Source of the DNA: Chloroflexota bacterium
GTDB taxonomy: Bacteria; Chloroflexota; UBA11872; VXOZ01
Assembly (NCBI GenBank): GCA_965221905.1
Contig: OZ244922.1
Coordinates: forward strand, 2,432,001-2,496,000
Reading direction: 5' to 3'
DNA: 64,000 nt
Below are positions 4,084 through 45,089 of this stretch, one piece after another. Below the pieces are notes generated by a model. The model worked only from the letters and a program-made list of their open reading frames with translations. It did no database searches and was not told where the DNA came from. Position 1 is the stretch's first letter, and each line of letters opens with the position of its first letter. A program made the translations under genes and the position numbers.

Positions 4084-4219
4084 GATTTTTGCCTGTTTAT
4101 TAGCAGGTGGTTCTTTAACAGGTGAAGAGTGATGAAGGTAAAGGTGTTTATCGTAGGAGAGCGAGGGCCTAGCTTTTCCGGGATGAGGCGGTTTCAGTTA
4201 TTCTGTTATCCCTTTTGTT

Positions 4220-5748
<1,529 letters not shown>

Positions 5749-6033
5749 TAGGGTTTACTACCCATGACCTCCTGTCCCATCTAAATGCTTTCCCAACCTC
5801 TCCAACTTACACCCCCTTCATCACCCTCCACCTGCTAACCCAGCCACCTTTCACCATTCCAGACACTCTCCTAACCAATCTACCCCTCTCCACATGAGGG
5901 GTTCTTCTTTTCTATCCCCCCAGCCATCTCCCTACGGAAACCTTTGCGATGCCCCTTCCCCCGTCAAGGGGGAAGATGGGGATGAGGATGAAAAGGGCCT
6001 CACTCCAAGTTTCCAAACACTTTCCGCCTCCCC

Positions 6034-6060
6034 CTGGTTTCCGGCTTTCGCCGGAAAGAC
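6034..6060 (+). repeat. small palindromic repeat, family A (CTGGATTCCGGCTTTCGCCGGAATGAC)
   Basis: similar copies at 26492-26520 (-), 43116-43144 and 51868-51896. Confidence 0.75.
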
Positions 6061-6440
6061 AGAGCTATGCATCGGGCTGCAAGTCCGCGCATGCCCCGTA
6101 CCCCGGATACGGGGGTCTCCAACAAGCAAGCATACAGACCCCGCAAGTGTGATCATCTCTTCCCCATCCAAGTAGCTGTCCATTGCCCGCTCCTATCTTC
6201 GTTCCCACCTTTCCTCTCCACCCTATCCACGTACTTCGGTGGGTGAGACACAGTTGTGCAAGCACCTCCATGGCATCGAACTACCCACCATGCAGCGGCT
6301 TGGCAGAGTTGCATACCGGCGTTTGCTGCGCTATATTCCTCCTGTGAGAAATGCGCTTTGCCTGCCACTAAATTGGCGACGTGCAGGCCAAGCCAAGGGT
6401 GGTACAATAAACAATAGACTGGCTTTACAGCGTATTCTGC

Positions 6441-6517
6441 GGGCCACTAGCTCAGTTGGTTAGAGCGCGCCCCTGATAAGGGCGAGGTCTGTGGTTCAAA
6501 TCCACAGTGGCCCACCA
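6441..6517 (+). tRNA. tRNA-Ile(GAT)
   Basis: cloverleaf GGGCCAC...GTGGCCC-ACCA, anticodon loop CTGATAA, GGTTCAAATCC T arm. Confidence 0.97.
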
Positions 6518-6734
6518 CGACGGCAGCGACACAACAGCCTCTCAGCATGTGCGGCACGGGCCGGTTCGGGTAGCAGAGAGATAGTTTTCACCGAGACGCC
6601 ATAGTGATTTCCGCCCTTAATGCACTAGAGATTTTCGGCTGACACGAACCAATGCGCCCATCGCGTCGCGAGTGCTCTGGGCCTGTTGTGAGTGTTTTGA
6701 TGCGCCTTAAGCGCACTGCGCGGCTGCCGGTCAC

Positions 6735-6810
6735 GGGGATGTAGCTCAGTTGGGAGAGCACCTCCTTTGCAAGGAGGGGGTCAGGAGTTCGAGTCTCCTC
6801 ATCTCCACCA
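6735..6810 (+). tRNA. tRNA-Ala(TGC), intact
   Basis: cloverleaf with G3:U70, anticodon loop TTTGCAA, encoded CCA. Confidence 0.97.
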
Positions 6811-9147: not shown

Positions 9148-9422
9148 ACTGACGCTATGGATTATTCCTAGATTGATTCAATGCGATCATTTACACGTCT
9201 TGGGGGAGAAACTGCGAGGAAGATTTGTTCCTCCGATTGGACAGAACTTTCGCGCTGGGGTGGCAGCTCTTATCCGGTAGCTGCTGTCAGTCTTGCCGCA
9301 GGCGAGCCCCAGAGTTGGATGGAGCGCCGCGTTGTCGCTGCCCAGATAGTCTTGAATATCCACCGACTCGGCAGACCCGACGTGTCTGTCCCAAACCGCC
9401 AAGATATGCGGGGCTATTCGCC

Positions 9423-10535
9423 ATGCTGAATCTCCCTCATGCCGATGTCGTTGGGAGCCTGATTAGACCACCGGAGCTACTCGCCGCGCGCGAGGAATTT
9501 GCGGCCGGGCGAATTTCGCCTTCGGAATTCAAGCGCGCCGAGGACGCCGCTGTCGATAGCGCCGTAGCTGCCCAGGAGGAGGCCGGACTTGAGATCCTCA
9601 CCGATGGCGAAATGCGCAGGCTCTCGTTCCAGAGTCAGATGCCCGAGGCAGTCGCAGGCTTTGGCGAGTTCGATATCGACGCGTTCCTCTGGGGCGATTG
9701 GCAGGGCGGCGAACGGGTAGGAAACTTGCGCAAGGAACGTCCTGCGACTCTGGGTGTCGTCGGTCCCCTCCAGCGGAAGCGCCACCTGTCGGCGGAGGAG
9801 TTCACCTACCTGCGCGGCCGCACCGCGCGCATAGCAAAGGTGACACTGCCGAGCCCCAGCCTGTTCGCCAACTTCTGGTCACCGGTGAAGTCTGCCGCAG
9901 CCTACCCCACGTTGGATGCGTTCTTGGCCGATGTCGCGCGGATAGTCCGTGGGGAGATCGAAGAGCTAATCAGGCTTGGGGCGACCTACATCCAACTCGA
10001 CGGTCCGCACTACCCACTCGTGCTGGATCCGGTGTGGGCGGCCTTCTACGAGGCCCAGGGTAGGTCTGCGGAGGACTGGATCGCCCAGGGCGTCGAGCTG
10101 GACAACGCCGTGATGGACGGTTTCTCGGAAGTAGTGTTCGCATTCCACCTCTGACGAGGGAACCAGGGCGGCCGTTGGCTGGTCGCAGGCAGTTACGACC
10201 GGATTGTTGAGCCGGTTCTCAAGCGCGTGAACGCGCAGCGGCTGATGCTGGAGTACGACGACCCACGCTCAGGCTCGTTCGAGCCTCTGCGCGGCGTGCC
10301 CAACGACAAGCTAGTGGCGCTTGGGCTGGTCACGACCAAGTCACCGCGCGCGGAGACCCCATCCGAGCTTGAGTCTAGGATCGCCGAGGCTGCCCGCCAC
10401 TTCCCTCTCGAGCAACTCGCCATCAGTCCTCAGTGCGGGTTCGGCTCATCCATCGTCGGCAATCCGCTTTCGATCGAGCAGCAAAACGCAAAACTCCGCA
10501 TCGTCGCCGAGACCGCCCGCAACGTTTGGGCGTAA
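9423..10535 (+). CDS. cobalamin-independent methionine synthase II family protein with in-frame UGA (candidate selenocysteine) at 10152-10154
   Basis: HADVVGSLIRP, TDGEMRR, YIQLDGP, HL*RGN, LEYD, GLVTTK, SPQCGF all in one frame; joins ORFs 9225-10154 and 10227-10535. Confidence 0.85.
10179..10202 (+). promoter_or_regulatory. candidate bacterial SECIS hairpin
   Basis: CTGGTCG-CAGGCAGTTA-CGACCGG stem-loop starting 24 nt after the UGA, G-containing apical loop. Confidence 0.5.
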
Positions 10536-10813: not shown

Positions 10814-10889
10814 GGGAATGTAGCTCGGTTGGGAGAGCACCTCGTTTGCAAGGAGGGGGTCAGGAGTTCGAGTTTCCTCATCTCCACCA
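10814..10889 (+). pseudogene. degenerate second copy of tRNA-Ala(TGC)
   Basis: 72/76 identical to 6735-6810; A4:C69 and G:G anticodon-stem mismatches, A14G. Confidence 0.8.
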
Positions 10890-28438: not shown

Positions 28439-28557
28439 CCTTGGGCAACGGCCTATTTTCCCACACAGTCGCCCGTGCAGTATCGTCGGTGCTGAGGGGC
28501 TTAACTACCGTGTTCGGGATGGGAACGGGTGTACCCCCCTCGCCTTGTCACCCAAGG
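28439..28557 (-). rRNA. rrf: 5S ribosomal RNA
   Basis: reverse complement has ACACCCGTTCCCATCCCGAACACGGTAGTTAAG; terminal helix CCTTGG/CCAAGG. Confidence 0.96.
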
Positions 28558-28937
28558 AATTCTTGACAGAGTTATTAGAAACGTGCCGTGCGTGTGATGC
28601 CACCCAACGAAAGATGGCAGCCGCACGTCAAGAGACGACGCGTTATGTCAATGTGCAGTAGTGAACGATGCGCAATACTTTAATGGGAACGTCTGGCGAA
28701 CAAACCCGCCATGACTATCCCGACCGGAGTGATAGAATTCTCGCGCTTGGAGAATACATCACAGATTACAGAACTCCAAATTTGCCAATTAGAAGCGCGG
28801 TTAAGTCCTCGACCATTAGTACCGCTCGGCTGAACGCGTTACCGCGCTTACACCTGCGGCCTATCAACCAGATAATCTCTCTGGGGTCTTACCTCTCGCC
28901 GCAATGCAGCGAGAGTGGGGAACCTAATCTTAAGGCT

Positions 28938-28970
<33 letters not shown>

Positions 28971-29028
28971 ATTCCGAACGTAGCTACCCAGCGATGCCTC
29001 TGGCGAGACAACTGGTACACCAGCGGTT

Positions 29029-29060
<32 letters not shown>

Positions 29061-29088
29061 CTCCTCTCAAGTTCCCTGCGCCTGCGGA

Positions 29089-29135
<47 letters not shown>

Positions 29136-29138
29136 GCG

Positions 29139-29173
<35 letters not shown>

Positions 29174-29249
29174 GCTCCAGCCCCAGGATGCGCTGAGCCG
29201 ACATCGAGGTGCCAAGCCTCCCCGTCGCTATGAACGCTTGGGGGAGATA

Positions 29250-29280
<31 letters not shown>

Positions 29281-29442
29281 ATAATCCACGGCCCTTCCAC
29301 TCGGAACCGTAGGGTCACTAAGCCCGACTTTCGTCCCTGCTCGACGTGTATGTCTCGCAGTCAAGCTCCCTTGTGCCTTTACACGCTGAGGCTGATTTCC
29401 ATCCAGCCTGAGGGAACCTTTGGGCGCCTCCGTTATCTTTTG

Positions 29443-29478
<36 letters not shown>

Positions 29479-29736
29479 CTGTCCCCCCCCCGGATTACGG
29501 CAGGGGGTTAGAATAAGGATCGTAGAAGGGTGGTATTTCACGATTGCCTCCCCAATCCCCAAAAGGAAAGGTTCATAGGCTCCCACCTATACTACGCATC
29601 GACGGCCCCGATCCAATGCCAAGTTGCAGTAAAGCTCCACGGGGTCTTTTTGTCCTTCCGCAGGTAACCAGCATCTTCACTGGTACTTCAATTTCGCCGG
29701 GTCCCCTGCTGAGACAGTGCCCAACTCGTTACGCCA

Positions 29737-29775
<39 letters not shown>

Positions 29776-30413
29776 CGGTTCATCCCACTCTGTTTCCAGA
29801 GGGGCCGGACTTTCTCTTCACTCATCCTATGTTCCTTTGTTCGGTGATGGCGCGGATCTCTGCAATGCCCTCCGTCGTGAGGTGTAACCCTCGCTCCATG
29901 AGCAACAATATGCGTCGAAACTTGATGAAGTCCACACGCTTCTTGGAACGCAGTTCGTGCTTCTCGAAGAACGGTAGGACCCGTTCCATGAGGTGCTCTA
30001 CACTGCGCACCCGATAGCACATGTGGTCTCCATGGTCTTGCCGTACAACCCCGCACCTGAAGAATTTCTTCAGTGCATAGAGTAGTTGCACGTCACGCTC
30101 ATGCTGCACCACAGTGAATTCAGGCAATACCTGAAATCCAGAGATCATCTCTTGATGCGGATTGATATCGACGAGGAAGTTACCTTCTCCATCCACAAAT
30201 CCGCAGATCCATTGCGCCGTCAACCGTTGGGACGAGGCCGGACGTAAAGTCTCTGAGGGTTCTCTCGAGTCTATCATGTGAGAGTCTTCCCTGCGGATTG
30301 TCCCCATGTCCATGCGGCTTTTTACTGCTTGCACGAGTGCAAACGAGTACCGAATGGCTGTGCGAGGAGTTTCCCGCATATGGTCCAGTTTTACTAAGGC
30401 TCGCGAATTTTGA
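29776..30413 (-). mobile_element. group I intron in 23S rRNA at E. coli position 1931
   Basis: interrupts CCTAAGGT^AGCGAAAT, ends in omega-G; P1, P3, P4, P7, P8 and P9 pairings visible. Confidence 0.95.
29822..30277 (-). CDS. single-motif LAGLIDADG homing endonuclease (start uncertain)
   Basis: WICGFVDGEGNF motif, F.VVQ, LKKFFRCG.V, LPFFEKHEL.SKK..DF. Confidence 0.92.
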   Translation of the reverse strand: MIDSREPSETLRPASSQRLTAQWICGFVDGEGNFLVDINPHQEMISGFQVLPEFTVVQHERDVQLLYALKKFFRCGVVRQDHGDHMCYRVRSVEHLMERVLPFFEKHELRSKKRVDFIKFRRILLLMERGLHLTTEGIAEIRAITEQRNIG

Positions 30414-31960
30414 ACCTTAGGACGGTTATAGTTACCGCCGCCGTTCACCGGGGCTTCCCGTCGGGGCGTGAACCCCTCTAGTTAACCTTCCGGCACCGGG
30501 CAGGCGTCAGCCCCCATACATCAGCTTTCGCTTTCGCGGAGACCTGTGTTTTTGTTAAACAGTCGGTTGGGCCGATTTAGTGTCACCGCAACTCGCTTCC
30601 CAGCGCAAGGCTGGTGCACGCGTCGCGGTACCCCTTCTCCCGAAGTTACGGGGTTAATTTGCCGAGTTCCTTAGCAGAGGGTCTCCCGCTCACCTTGGGA
30701 CTATTACCCCCGCCCACCAGTGTCGGTTTGCGGTACGGGCGCCCATATTCTAGCTAGAGGCTTTTCTTGCAGGCTGGGCTCAAAAGAATTGCCGTTGACT
30801 TGCGTCGCGGACTCTCCATCGCTTCTCGGCGTTTGGAATAGAGCAACGGATTTACCTGTCGCTCCCGCCTACCAGCTTGGACGTGTATAGCCAAGAACAC
30901 GCTCTTCCTACCCTGCCCGGTCCCCCCTTCGCTCATAACGAACCTGGGCGGTTCCGGAATATCAACCGGATGTCCATCGCCTACGCCATAATGGCCTCGG
31001 CTTAGGCCCGACTAACCCTCAGAGGACGAACCTTCCTGAGGAAACCTTGGGCTTACGGTGAGCCGGATTCTCACCGGCTAACGCTACTCATGCCGACATT
31101 CGCACTTCCCTGCGCTCCACCCGTCCTTTCGGTCGAGCTTCACGGCCCAGGGAACGCTCCCCTACCCAGCGGTGGCTCCCGAAGGAGCACCACTGCCCTA
31201 GCTTCGGTACCAGACTTGAGCCCCGTTAAATTTTCGGCGCCAGACGGCTTGACCAGTGAGCTGTTACGCACTCTTTAAAGGATGGCTGCTTCCAAGCCAA
31301 CCTCCTGGCTGTCCGGGCTATCCGACATCCTTTCCCACTTAGTCTGAATTTAGGGACCTTAGCTGAGGGTCTGGGTTGTTTCCCTCTTGACGATGAAGAT
31401 TATCCCCCACCGTCCCACTCCCAGGTAACATGTATACGGCATTCGGAGTTTGGTTGGGTTTGGTAACCGTTTTGGCCCCTAGCCCATCCAGTGCTCTACC
31501 TCCGCAACACTCTAACCTGAGGCTGCACCGCAATGCATTTCGGGGAGAACCAGCTATATCTGAGTTCGATTGGCATTTCACCTCTAACCACAGCTCATCC
31601 CCCAGTTTTGTAACACTGGTGGGTTCGGGCTTCCACGAGATATTACTCTCTCTTCACCCTGGCCATGGCTAGCTCACTCAGTTTCGGGTCTACTCCACGC
31701 GACTAAATCGCCCTGTTAGGACTCGCTTTCGCTACGGCTCCGGCCCTCCGACCTTAGCCTTGCCACGCATAGTAACTCGTCGGCTCATTCTCCAAAAGGC
31801 ACGCCATCAGGCATTCCGTCCTATAATGCGGGCATAGCGTCCCCGTGCGCCGCACCTTCCGAAGAAAATGCATTGCGCGGGCACGCCGTCCCAGCAAGAC
31901 GGCATAGCCCTCTGACTGCTTGTAAGCGTACGATTTCAGGTTCTATTTCACTCCCCTCCC

Positions 31961-31991
<31 letters not shown>

Positions 31992-32607
31992 CGTTCACTA
32001 TCGGTTGCCAAAGGTGTTTAGCCTTGGGAAGTGGGCTTCCCAGATTCCCACAGGGTTACACGTGTCCCGTGGTACTCAGGCACAGCAACGAGAGAGCTGT
32101 GATTTTCGTGTACGGGGCTTTCACCCTCTCTGGCGGGCCATTCCAGACCCTTCTACTAACCACAGCTTTTCTCCAACTCTCCGAGCTCCTTGCAGAAAGC
32201 TCTGTTGCGGCCTACAACCCTCATACTGCAACGGCTGCAACCTATCACACAGTATGAGTTTGGGCTGTTCCCCTTTCGCTCGCCACTACTCAGGGAATAA
32301 TCTCTTTTCCTCGCCTTACTAAGATGATTCAGTTCAGACGGTTCCCTCCACATACCTATGAATTCAGTATGCGGTGACGAGGCATCACCCTCGCCGGGTT
32401 TCCCCATTCGGGTACCTGCGGATCAAAATCTGCTGACGACTCCCCGCAGCTTTTCGCAGTCAACCGCGCCCTTCATCGGCCTTTGGCACCAAGGCATCCA
32501 TCGTACGCCCTTAGTAACTTAGCCTGCTTCTAATCGGCAAAATTGAAGTTCTGCTTTGCGCATATTCACTTGTTAAGGTACCGCCCCATCTCTAGGGCGC
32601 AACAACT

Positions 32608-43275: not shown

Positions 43276-43351
43276 TGGTGGGCCCAATCGGGGTCGACCC
43301 GACGACCTCGTGAATGCCATTCACGCGCTCTCCCACCTGAGCTACGGGCCC
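43276..43351 (-). pseudogene. degenerate second copy of tRNA-Ala(GGC)
   Basis: near-copy of 45014-45089 but G3:C70 instead of G3:U70 and T loop GTCGA instead of TTCGA. Confidence 0.75.
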
Positions 43352-43492
43352 GCATTCAACTATAATTGTAGGCGATCCGTTTTGCGCCTACTTGATCAAG
43401 ATAGAATGTTGACCACCCTCGCCGGCGGTTCCCATCAGCCCGGCACCAAGGAGCCCACTCTTGCGCGACCATAATGAGAAAATAGCGGCAAT

Positions 43493-44620
43493 CTAGGAAG
43501 TCTGACAGTTCGGATAGCCGCTGCGCAATGGTGTGCCGCTCGACGAATACGGGTCTCCTTCAACGATGCGCTCGAAAAAGGTAGCATCTGCCGCCGTCAC
43601 GTTGCACCAGTAGAAGCCCAGTGCCTGAAACGTCGGATAGTCCGGTATGTGCCGCCATTTCAGTTGGCTCGCGTCGTAGGCAAAGATACGGTCATCAAGG
43701 CCATCGAAGCGTCGCGCTAACTGGTTCGGCTCCGGGAAACGATGGTCCAACGGAATAGACGCCACCACACCCACCGGCACGGAGTACCGTGTGTTCACTA
43801 TCTCCCAGGGGATGGAGTAGACCAATGGGCTTCCCGGCGCCACCCAACGGCGCACTATCTTACCGCTGTCCTCATAGCGCACGATGACATAGGTTTGGCC
43901 TAGGGTTGCGTCGCGAATGATGCCGACGACAACCTGACTTGAACCATCCCTTGCGATCCAGCCAACGCCCAACTCGAAAGTGGCGCCCGCTTCGTCATGA
44001 CGCGTGATGACGAGACGATCTCCAACCACCTCGGTAGCCGTGGCGGAATTCGTTTGCCCAATCACCCGCGGCAGCGTGGAGTCGTCCGATTCATCCGAAT
44101 CAGTAGTGATCGTTCCCGTCTGGATCGCTCCCGGTATTACCCGAATGGAGGTCTCGTCGGAGTATTCTCCCACGCCAATCCGGTTCACCGCGGCTACCCT
44201 CACGGAATACGTGGATTCTGGTTGTAGCCCGCTAAGCCGGATGGGTCGCGCCTGGTCTTCTTCGACAAGCATCGAAATGCTGAAGTCGTCACCCGCCCTG
44301 TAGTATTCAATTGCGTATCGGAGAATGCTCGACCCACCATCACCAGGTGTACTCCAATTGACATCAATGGCGTTGGTGCCAACGACCCGCAGCGAGGGCG
44401 TGCCCGGCTTTTCCGGCACGGTTGGATCGTCTGCAATTGCCGCGCCTGTCCCTACGGTGGCAAAGAGAGCAATCAGCCCCGCCATTGCGACTAGCACGAG
44501 CCCCGCGCGCCGCAACAACGCTATCGTCAATCGTAGCGGTGAAGAAGGTGCACCTTCCGCGCTTATCCAAGGTCGGTTGCTTGCGATCTGCTTACCCATC
44601 ATGATGCCTAACCCTTCCAC
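43493..44620 (-). CDS. secreted fibronectin type III domain protein
   Basis: signal peptide; VNWSTPGDGGSSI..Y, LSGLQPESTYSVRVAAVN.IGVGEYS. Confidence 0.85.
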   Translation of the reverse strand: MEGLGIMMGKQIASNRPWISAEGAPSSPLRLTIALLRRAGLVLVAMAGLIALFATVGTGAAIADDPTVPEKPGTPSLRVVGTNAIDVNWSTPGDGGSSILRYAIEYYRAGDDFSISMLVEEDQARPIRLSGLQPESTYSVRVAAVNRIGVGEYSDETSIRVIPGAIQTGTITTDSDESDDSTLPRVIGQTNSATATEVVGDRLVITRHDEAGATFELGVGWIARDGSSQVVVGIIRDATLGQTYVIVRYEDSGKIVRRWVAPGSPLVYSIPWEIVNTRYSVPVGVVASIPLDHRFPEPNQLARRFDGLDDRIFAYDASQLKWRHIPDYPTFQALGFYWCNVTAADATFFERIVEGDPYSSSGTPLRSGYPNCQTS

Positions 44621-45013
44621 TAAGTCTGGCTATGCGCTACGAACTCAATGAATGCAGTTTGCGCTATCGTGCCGACGCCTCTGTCCTGAGAACTAAGGAA
44701 CAGCAAGGATGACTTGAAGGAAAATTGCGAAAGTGAACCGAGAAGGTTTTGTCTGGAGAGCTTAGCAATGGGCTAAGCTACTTTCGTCGCTCTTGGTAGG
44801 ATAGGGGATCAAATACGAATATGCAGGATTCCACGAGATTGTGCGGCATTCAAGGAAATCTTAGACGCTTCTTACAAGAGAGGACATATCGGAACCAGTG
44901 CGGCGAAACTCACCGGCACAATACAATCCGCGGGCAGTATCTTGAATCACTCGAAAAGCCATGGGGCAATAGTGAATCACCCAAAACTACATGGTGATTC
45001 GCATCTGGAACTC

Positions 45014-45089
45014 TGGTGGACCCGATCGGGCTCGAACCGACGACCTCATGAATGCCATTCACGCGCTCTCCCAACTGAGCTACGGGCCC
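45014..45089 (-). tRNA. tRNA-Ala(GGC), intact
   Basis: cloverleaf, G3:U70, anticodon GGC, GGTTCGA, CCA; upstream TACAAT -10 box. Confidence 0.95.

Follow-up and report, generated by a model that had tools for sequence, protein, structure and literature searches.

Here we describe the gene at positions 9423-10535 of a 64,000-nucleotide (nt) stretch of DNA from a Chloroflexota bacterium (GTDB lineage UBA11872; VXOZ01; assembly GCA_965221905.1, contig OZ244922.1, positions 2,432,001 to 2,496,000 of the forward strand). The whole stretch is referred to as the window and positions are counted from its first letter; it is the segment 2432001-2496000 of contig C1 in a complete genome of 3.52 Mb (G000). 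The gene very probably encodes a genuine selenoprotein and belongs to a widespread family of short proteins related to cobalamin-independent methionine synthase (MetE). More specifically, we assign a probability of about 0.87 to the interpretation that 9423-10535 encodes a functional selenoprotein, a MetE-type zinc barrel with selenocysteine (Sec) at residue 244, decoded via a hairpin at 10166-10184. This interpretation is based on the recoding signature itself, on the pairing of Sec and Cys forms, on selection acting on both sides of the codon, on the presence of the Sec machinery and on the protein fold. The two features on which the argument turns are:

9423 to 10535, plus strand: gene, very probably of a short MetE-like (Meth_synt_2) selenoprotein; 370 amino acids (aa), stop codon TAA at 10533-10535; assigned from orthologues, structural model and Foldseek
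10152 to 10154, plus strand: in-frame TGA, very probably read as selenocysteine, residue 244; column of the Cys of the H-x-C zinc motif

Reading frame and the TGA codon

On the plus strand, 9423-10535 translates as a single 370-codon frame, in which TGA 10152-10154 is the sole internal stop. Its two halves correspond to the open reading frames (ORFs) 9225-10154 and 10227-10535. Read through from ATG 9423, it yields a protein of 370 aa with the TGA in the context AFHL*RGNQGGRW and with the motifs GSL, TDGEMRR, LEYD and SPQCGF. The original prediction, a note made from the sequence of the window, had described one frame broken solely by this TGA, its length and these motifs, and the translation bears out all of it. 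The same note proposed that the UGA encodes Sec in place of the zinc-ligand Cys of a Meth_synt_2 enzyme, and the computational checks that it put forward all support this proposal.

The TGA codon is also covered by independent contigs. One contig from a DNA run (X3, 9465-10468, with two differences) and three contigs from RNA libraries (X15, 9509-10465; X16, 9641-10518; X17, 10036-10360; three metatranscriptomic runs from two studies) bridge it. Among the differences listed for these contigs, with 26 lower-ranked ones outside the list, none falls at 10152-10154. Coverage of the stretch is incomplete in some RNA-library runs, and 9826-10136 is skipped at one X3 contig joint; we conclude nothing from either observation.

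TGA and Cys codons within the genus

Sixteen other species of the genus were searched in six frames, and orthologues at 90-96% identity were identified in 13 of them. Ten of these orthologues have exactly one internal stop, a TGA, and three (G013, G002 and G007) have no stop; in G008, G009 and G011, whose genomes are 95-99% complete, the same search found no orthologue. In other words, 11 of the 14 genus genes, including that of the window, have TGA at this codon, the other three having TGC, TGT and TGC. The TGA is therefore not unique to this assembly among homologues that all carry TGC or TGT, a situation that the original prediction had envisaged as speaking against recoding. According to a FastTree phylogeny, the three Cys forms of the genus make up one clade nested among Sec forms.

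Selection was evaluated separately for the two sides of the TGA. The ratio of nonsynonymous to synonymous substitution rates (dN/dS; 91 pairs, 14 genes) comes to 0.124 upstream (codons 1-243) and 0.145 downstream (codons 245-369). Since the values are similarly low, both halves are under the same purifying selection, as the original prediction had expected of a recoded gene.

Distribution beyond the genus

We scanned one genome per prokaryotic species with the degenerate pattern F-x-x-H-x-TGA-R-G-N-x4-W. At least 120 stretches matched, and 80 loci were fetched. Among the matches listed, to which all counts of Sec-form loci given here refer, the family with an in-frame TGA was found in 74 of the 80 fetched loci, the remaining six being chance matches. 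In each of the 74 loci the TGA is followed by RGNQ..RW and a downstream frame, most often of 126 codons. These loci span at least 13 named phyla. By the taxon labels of the records they are distributed as follows:

Chloroflexota: 15
Binatota: 13
Poribacteria: 11
Acidobacteriota: 7
Myxococcota: 6
Methylomirabilota: 5
Thermodesulfobacteriota: 4
'Deltaproteobacteria': 4
Latescibacterota: 2
Bacteroidota, Verrucomicrobiota, Gemmatimonadota, Tectimicrobiota and Planctomycetota: 1 each
Unplaced: 2

Records of Dehalococcoidia and Anaerolineales are among those with Sec forms. A 400-genome sample of the phylum had shown TGA forms in the window's genus only; judged by the later scan this sample was too thin, and it was set aside.

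Full-length homologues with Cys, 65-90% identical, number in the thousands in protein databases. Where a source name is given, which is rarely the case, it is 'cobalamin-independent methionine synthase II family protein' or '5-methyltetrahydropteroyltriglutamate--homocysteine methyltransferase'. When 70 Sec and 55 Cys forms are placed in one FastTree phylogeny, at least 12 changes between Sec and Cys are required, five of which are forced by well-supported branches. Repeated exchange of this kind is the behaviour of established selenoprotein families. The alignment of TGA with Cys across independent genomes, which the original prediction had put forward as a check, is thus seen both in the genus and in distant loci.

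These results bear on two explanations that dispense with recoding. According to one, the gene is a nonsense allele, a decaying pseudogene or an assembly error. It is true that databases list a truncated product: some proteins end exactly at H-L or H-V (P0123, P0153, P0272), and of the 15 members listed for the 49-member cluster of P0123, 12 have a length of 243 aa. This is also where the original prediction was mistaken, as it expected pipelines to call a pseudogene and databases instead hold the 243-aa protein. However, the TGA is kept in 11 species of the genus as well as in 74 loci from various phyla, where the frame beyond it is intact, the dN/dS of the downstream part is as low as stated above, and the DNA and RNA-library contigs cover the site with none of the listed differences there. 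We consider the probability of this explanation to be negligible. The other explanation invokes two products, a 243-aa N-terminal and a 102-aa C-terminal protein (start GTG 10227), which together form one barrel. Split MetE proteins do exist in archaea (PMC7857596). Nonetheless, the 24 codons between TGA and GTG 10227 (RGNQGGRWL..GSYDRIV) are conserved like the rest of the gene, a split would delete part of the barrel, and the Cys forms are contiguous, so a two-piece enzyme is hardly credible.

A putative SECIS element

Two hairpins can be drawn downstream of the UGA, and they compete for the role of the selenocysteine insertion sequence (SECIS):

10166 to 10184, plus strand: proposed SECIS core hairpin; +14 to +32 from the U of UGA, 11 nt after UGA
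10179 to 10202, plus strand: hairpin of the original prediction; overlaps the 3' arm of the SECIS core; -9.7 kcal/mol; genus only

The proposed core is made by the codons for Q-G-S/G-R-W-L-x and has a three-base apical loop, which is G-U-U in the window and G-G-U in most other lineages. Across 74 distinct Sec forms, positions +14 to +32 are paired in 87.5% of 592 cells. The four loop-proximal pairs are formed in all 74 sequences and the fifth in 67. In 500 shuffles neither the pairing nor the covariation score of the real sequences was matched, and with the 3' arm slid along, pairing reached at most 71.5%. According to published constraints, a bacterial SECIS (bSECIS) has an apical loop of 3-9 nt opening with G and then G/U, a stem of 4-16 bp, a distance of 16-37 nt between UGA and loop and an energy of -7.5 kcal/mol or below (PMC13188914). 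The window hairpin, with its 3-nt loop G-U-U, 5+2 bp, distance of 19 nt from the UGA and -9.1 kcal/mol, lies within these limits.

A more discriminating signal comes from comparing Sec forms with 45 Cys forms from the same subfamily, which consist of 33 of 75 metagenome pattern matches, nine sequences from the phylum sample and three of the genus. At the wobble base of the loop Arg codon (+23), 76 Sec forms have G (56) or U (20) and never C or A, whereas the Cys forms have C in 33 cases, U in six, and G and A in three each. The other Arg wobble position (+5) is C in 46 of the same 76 Sec sequences and so provides an internal control against codon bias as the cause of the pattern at +23. In addition, the pair 17-29, in which both partners are wobble bases, is formed in 69 of the 76 Sec forms (CG 63, GC 3, AU 2, GU 1) vs 27 of the 45 Cys forms.

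The hairpin pointed out originally does exist, with 7-nt arms and a 10-nt loop at 10179-10202, 24 nt after the UGA. It is kept across the genus, Cys forms included, with one-sided breaks in G001 and G006. As a SECIS of the family it was rejected, since it is genus-specific, was not recovered outside the genus and has a loop that does not start with G. A scan of the window against Rfam at the gathering threshold returned no family over 10150-10220 and is uninformative; the bacterial SECIS models of Rfam are gene-specific. Taken together, it is likely that the hairpin 10166-10184 with its G-G/U-U loop, rather than the hairpin 10179-10202, is the SECIS of the family.

Selenocysteine machinery

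The original prediction had made recoding dependent on Sec machinery in the genome, and the search found all of its components above curated cut-offs. These are tRNA-Sec (67.1 bits; anticodon TCA by ARAGORN), selA (565.6 bits), selB (360.7 bits) and selD (380.4 bits; G000:C1:1231935-1232864). Neither selA nor selB has internal stops. The selD gene has one in-frame TGA and therefore the selenophosphate synthetase of this genome is itself a selenoprotein. In the genus, selA is present in 17 of 17 genomes, including the three Cys-form species and the three without the gene under study; it is also present in all five distant Sec-form genomes tested.

The same data limit the possibility that the UGA is read by other means, either by near-cognate insertion of Trp or Cys or in another genetic code. 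What might favour such read-through is that the SECIS stem is partly forced by codons. Against it stand several observations: there is a single TGA per gene, always at the Cys column; the Sec machinery is complete in the window genome and selA occurs in every Sec-form genome tested; and the loop base is constrained in Sec forms only. As for another genetic code, TGA terminates many Sec-form genes of the same family, and selA and selB are free of internal stops. Decoding other than as Sec is thus very unlikely.

Fold and active site

The read-through protein matches Pfam Meth_synt_2 (PF01717) over residues 9-340 (E 3.7e-17; 63.1 bits vs a cut-off of 21). With the model of full-length MetE (TIGR01371) it scores 47.4 bits vs a cut-off of 929.95, only profile positions 429-601 being matched. 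The N-terminal folate-binding barrel (Meth_synt_1) is absent, the protein having 370 aa vs about 750 aa for full-length MetE; therefore 5-methyltetrahydrofolate is unlikely to be bound as in MetE. An AlphaFold2 model based on a 116-sequence alignment has a mean predicted local distance difference test (pLDDT) score of 95.4 and a predicted template modelling (pTM) score of 0.94. The best Foldseek matches of this model are 1ypx, a Listeria protein labelled 'putative vitamin-B12 independent methionine synthase', and MetE C-terminal barrels, among them those of T. maritima and C. albicans (template modelling (TM) scores 0.72-0.76), with a probability of 1.00 to 1ypx, 1xpg and 4l5z. The fold is accordingly the TIM barrel of the homocysteine domain. 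By sequence, too, the closest solved structure is 1ypx (E 2.8e-47; by fold E 1e-19).

In the alignments the TGA falls on the Cys of H-x-C, which is invariant in our alignment A1 and at least 90% conserved in the 116 homologues, and the same holds for Glu277 and Cys338. Besides residue 244, the putative zinc site involves:

10146 to 10148, plus strand: codon for His242, putative zinc ligand; invariant in A1 and in the 116 homologues; end of predicted strand 238-243
10251 to 10253, plus strand: codon for Glu277 (LEYD), putative fourth zinc ligand; end of predicted strand 273-277
10434 to 10436, plus strand: codon for Cys338 (SPQCGF), putative zinc ligand; loop after predicted strand 332-336

In T. 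maritima MetE, two of the zinc ligands are strand-end residues, His618 of beta5 and Glu642 of beta6, and two are loop residues, Cys620 following beta5 and Cys704 following beta8 (PMC539065, Pejchal and Ludwig). Judging from the model, His242, residue 244, Glu277 and Cys338 would occupy the same strand-end and loop positions. Ser12, Glu63 and Asp193 are conserved as well, and the Ser-Glu spacing of 51 is also found between Ser22 and Glu73 of 3RPD, a MesD structure in which the two residues hold the amino-acid end of the substrate (PMC7857596).

Based on these features, we envisage a free-standing homologue of the homocysteine- and zinc-binding catalytic barrel found in cobalamin-independent methionine synthase. 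UGA 10152-10154 would be decoded as Sec by SelA, SelB, SelC and SelD of the genome itself, under the direction of the small hairpin 11 nt downstream. The selenol would then take the place of the first Cys in the His-x-Cys ... Glu ... Cys zinc site. The resulting zinc centre, presumably ligated by His242, Sec244, Glu277 and Cys338, would serve to bind a thiol, most likely homocysteine, and to activate it for methyl transfer from a donor other than one bound in the MetE-type folate mode.

The benefit of Sec at such a site is a matter of conjecture. It is possible that Sec tunes the reactivity of the zinc-bound thiolate or that it makes oxidation of the ligand pair easier to reverse. In zinc-depleted, oxidised crystals of T. 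maritima MetE, the two equivalent zinc-ligand cysteines form a disulfide (PMC539065). This disulfide and the accompanying zinc loss make easier reversal of oxidation a plausible benefit. The same crystals, by showing that the ligand pair is sensitive to oxidation, also lend some support to the idea that Sec is more than a zinc ligand, either forming a selenenylsulfide with Cys338 (as a redox switch or a protection against zinc loss) or serving as a transient methyl carrier. Most known selenoproteins are indeed redox proteins (PMC13188914). The repeated exchange of Sec and Cys in the family is likewise typical of redox-type sites. On the other hand, His, Glu, the second Cys and the residues that bind the substrate show the conservation known from zinc-dependent MetE. 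An additional role for Sec of this sort seems to us decidedly unlikely, and it would be compatible with plain ligation of zinc by Sec244, which we favour.

Three more Meth_synt_2 paralogues (29-32% identity, no internal stops) are encoded in the genome outside the window, at G000:C1:771313-772203, 2270652-2271164 and 1653110-1653457. They are candidates for the housekeeping core methionine synthase.

Evidence weighing against the interpretation

Several observations count against our interpretation or reduce the weight of its support. The RNA evidence is at the contig level and RNA libraries may contain DNA, so these contigs do not prove transcription. In the genus the SECIS stem is weaker, having a G.U pair and a G/G mismatch, and the hairpin 10179-10202 is of nearly equal energy and mutually exclusive with the SECIS core. 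Cys forms on average retain 6.2 of the eight stem pairs vs 7.0 in Sec forms. The stem is therefore largely imposed by protein-coding constraint, and the support for the SECIS comes mainly from the loop base and one wobble pair. The difference between Sec and Cys forms at the loop base +23 has a Fisher p of 1e-22, a value uncorrected for relatedness. In addition, selA is also present in all five of the closest Cys-form genomes of the phylum. Because selA is common to Sec-form and Cys-form genomes, the machinery is necessary for the Sec form yet non-discriminating, and we rejected it as a means of telling the two forms apart. Finally, the protein scores below the NCBIfam cut-offs for PRK06520 (217.4 vs 313) and PRK06233 (200.7 vs 576). 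The assignment to the 'YxjG/YxjH-type' family in the original prediction thus holds as a resemblance and not as membership. The protein represents a sister subfamily outside both models, which leaves its exact reaction loosely defined.

Genomic setting in the window

The selenoprotein gene is situated in a segment bracketed by tRNA genes, as had been noticed originally; this segment is real, with tRNA-Ala copies at both borders:

6735 to 6810, plus strand: tRNA-Ala(TGC), left border, after 16S and tRNA-Ile; 69.4 bits
7151 to 9147, plus strand: variable two-gene insert, ATPase and 157-aa ORF, between tRNA-Ala and the selenoprotein gene
10814 to 10889, plus strand: diverged second copy of tRNA-Ala(TGC), right border; 47.7 bits, five mismatches in the tRNA body

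In congeners the right-border copy is either decayed (called tRNA-Cys, tRNA-Tyr or tRNA-Leu by ARAGORN) or was not found. In G004 (locus L031) and G007 (L037) the gene directly follows tRNA-Ala. The segment looks like an old integration at a tRNA, which took place before the split of the species examined, and the selenoprotein gene is a stable resident of this tRNA site. The insert has no aligned sequence in most congener loci, L031 and L037 included, and parts of it align in L033 (G005) and L035 (G013). Its ATPase (508 aa; PADLOC PD-T4-4_A, 143.7 bits; Pfam AAA_15) overlaps by 4 nt the 157-aa ORF, which has no family match. The two genes are a candidate phage-defence pair and are not part of the selenoprotein function.

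Several other features of the window may be recorded. Past the diverged tRNA-Ala, ORF 11169-11855 matches Methyltransf_25 at 24.4 bits, below the cut-off of 27, in a region conserved in several congeners. The rRNA genes are unlinked: 16S, tRNA-Ile and tRNA-Ala occupy 4217-6810 on the plus strand, whereas 23S (28797-32524) and 5S (28440-28555) are encoded on the minus strand at a distance of 22 kb. A group I intron (Rfam RF00028, 29786-30446, 52.8 bits) interrupts the 23S gene. A second tRNA-bracketed segment is found at 43276-45089 on the minus strand, between tRNA-Ala(GGC) at 45014-45089 and a diverged copy at 43276-43351 that Rfam does not call at the gathering threshold. A 375-aa ORF inside it (43493-44620) has a fibronectin type III domain.

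Neighbours in other lineages

Clustering of 1061 ORFs from the 74 Sec-form loci produced no family present in more than 13 loci, and a universal conserved neighbour was therefore rejected. Neighbours that are bound to particular lineages include TauE/SafE, Amidohydro_2, an NMT1-type binding protein, UbiD and a zinc-dependent alcohol dehydrogenase.

Nevertheless, 18 of the 74 loci have neighbours related to selenium. A SenA-like selenoxide synthase (NF041186, 515.4 bits vs a cut-off of 420) is found in nine loci and lies directly downstream, at 28-149 nt, in six of them. EgtD (TIGR03438, 373-381 bits) is found in seven, directly upstream (5-68 nt) in five. The third such neighbour, selD (TIGR00476, 351 bits), occurs in ten loci; in Poribacteria its distance downstream is 430-730 nt in eight of nine loci and 2175 nt in the remaining one. 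In some lineages, among them Methylomirabilota and Poribacteria, either egtD, a betaine-type ATP-binding cassette (ABC) transporter, the Sec-MetE-like gene and a senA-like gene form a cluster, or the gene lies upstream of selD. In the clusters adjoining selD, the selD ORF starts after its own Sec codon. Examples of these clusters are:

L069, 3867 to 8000: selenium-neighbour cluster, also with a betaine-type ABC transporter
L138, 989 to 7349: selenium-neighbour cluster, also with a betaine-type ABC transporter
L120, 3196 to 4155: selenium-neighbour cluster

No selenium-related neighbours were seen at 45 Cys-form loci or at the 14 genus loci, but these loci are shorter (median about 4.1 kb vs 8 kb). 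For the window itself a link to selenoneine is unsupported, its genome having no SenA above the cut-off (best 45.6 bits) and no EgtD.

EgtD consumes three molecules of S-adenosylmethionine per hercynine, and the ordinary explanation for the clustering with egtD would be regeneration of methionine for EgtD. It is tempting to go further and to imagine an enzyme that might methylate a selenol or thione (selenoneine, selenohomocysteine) or take a methyl group from a betaine such as hercynine. In its full form, this idea would make the family a widespread one with the first natural catalytic zinc-selenolate site and a role in selenium or thio/seleno-imidazole metabolism instead of housekeeping methionine synthesis. 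We regard this idea as unlikely, and the link to selenium metabolism is a lead rather than a finding. Even so, the clustering with egtD, senA-like genes and selD suggests a connection, open to testing, of the protein branch of selenium metabolism with its small-molecule branch.

Relation to known selenoproteins and methionine synthases

A 2026 review, which describes itself as the most comprehensive inventory, counts 119 prokaryotic selenoprotein families and subfamilies; its Table 1 has no entry for MetE, methionine synthase or PF01717 (PMC13188914). Nor is a Sec form of a MetE-like protein mentioned in the available text of the deep-Sep paper, the Olavius symbiont study, the GOS survey, the ISME 2016 survey and the Haft 2022 preprint, whose supplementary tables could list it (PMC12013277, PMC1976440, PMC2398784, PMC5029168, bioRxiv 10.1101/2022.07.06.499078, bioRxiv 10.1101/2022.04.13.486033). 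Nothing relevant came up when the literature was searched for selenoprotein terms together with MetE or methionine synthase, and no NCBIfam selenoprotein model matched the window protein. In the literature and models searched, the family is thus absent from the recognised selenoprotein families and no description of it turned up. Since annotation stops the family at residue 243 and the family is unlisted, selenoproteome counts are too low; this concerns Chloroflexota, Binatota, Poribacteria, Acidobacteriota, Methylomirabilota and others. In addition, the 11 Sec and three Cys orthologues of one genus, more than 90% identical, constitute a natural Sec/Cys pair for gauging the effect of a selenolate at a zinc-thiolate site.

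Among known enzymes, the C-terminal barrel of MetE shares with the window protein the Meth_synt_2 domain, the fold (Foldseek TM 0.75-0.76 to 1xpg and 1xdj), the H-x-C ... E ... C ligands at the same strand ends and the conserved Ser, Glu and Asp that bind homocysteine in MetE-type enzymes. It differs in that the window protein has 370 aa and no N-terminal barrel, its equivalent of Cys620 is encoded by TGA, and identity is about 18-20%. The short B12-independent proteins (1ypx from Listeria monocytogenes, PRK06233 and PRK06520), which we take to be kin of YxjG/YxjH, have the same length and architecture, and 1ypx has the HxCRGN motif. However, all of them have Cys where the window protein has Sec; our searches found no characterised function for 1ypx or for PRK06233/PRK06520.

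The best model for how the window protein may work is provided by the stand-alone MetE catalytic barrels that lack the folate domain. Such folate-independent methionine synthases have reportedly been described as core-MetE by Deobald et al. in 2020. The core methionine synthases MesA-D are stand-alone barrels that methylate homocysteine with the help of non-folate donors, for instance methylcobalamin or corrinoid proteins (PMC7857596, Price et al. 2021). In the available text of that paper the word 'selenocysteine' does not occur and no Sec form of a core methionine synthase is mentioned. Judged by the MesD structure 3rpd, which matches the window protein at E 2.6e-7, the relationship is nonetheless distant, and neither MesX nor a corrinoid-protein partner (MtrA, CoFeSP) was seen among the conserved neighbours of the Sec-form loci.

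With regard to the use of selenium, the Sec of nearly all known selenoproteins either takes part in redox chemistry or ligates a redox-active metal. Formate dehydrogenase (Mo/W) and [NiFeSe] hydrogenase (Ni) resemble the window protein in having Sec in place of a metal-ligating Cys at a catalytic metal (PMC13188914). Their metals are redox-active and catalyse redox reactions, whereas the window protein would use zinc, and for alkyl transfer. Arsenite methyltransferase, methylated-DNA-protein-cysteine methyltransferase and MduS are, like the window protein, non-classical selenoproteins tied to methyl transfer (PMC13188914). However, these three have unrelated folds, being either dependent on S-adenosylmethionine or suicide acceptors. 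In them Sec binds the substrate or accepts the methyl group and is not a zinc ligand. If our interpretation is correct, Sec ligating zinc in an alkyl-transfer enzyme would widen the known uses of selenium by proteins.

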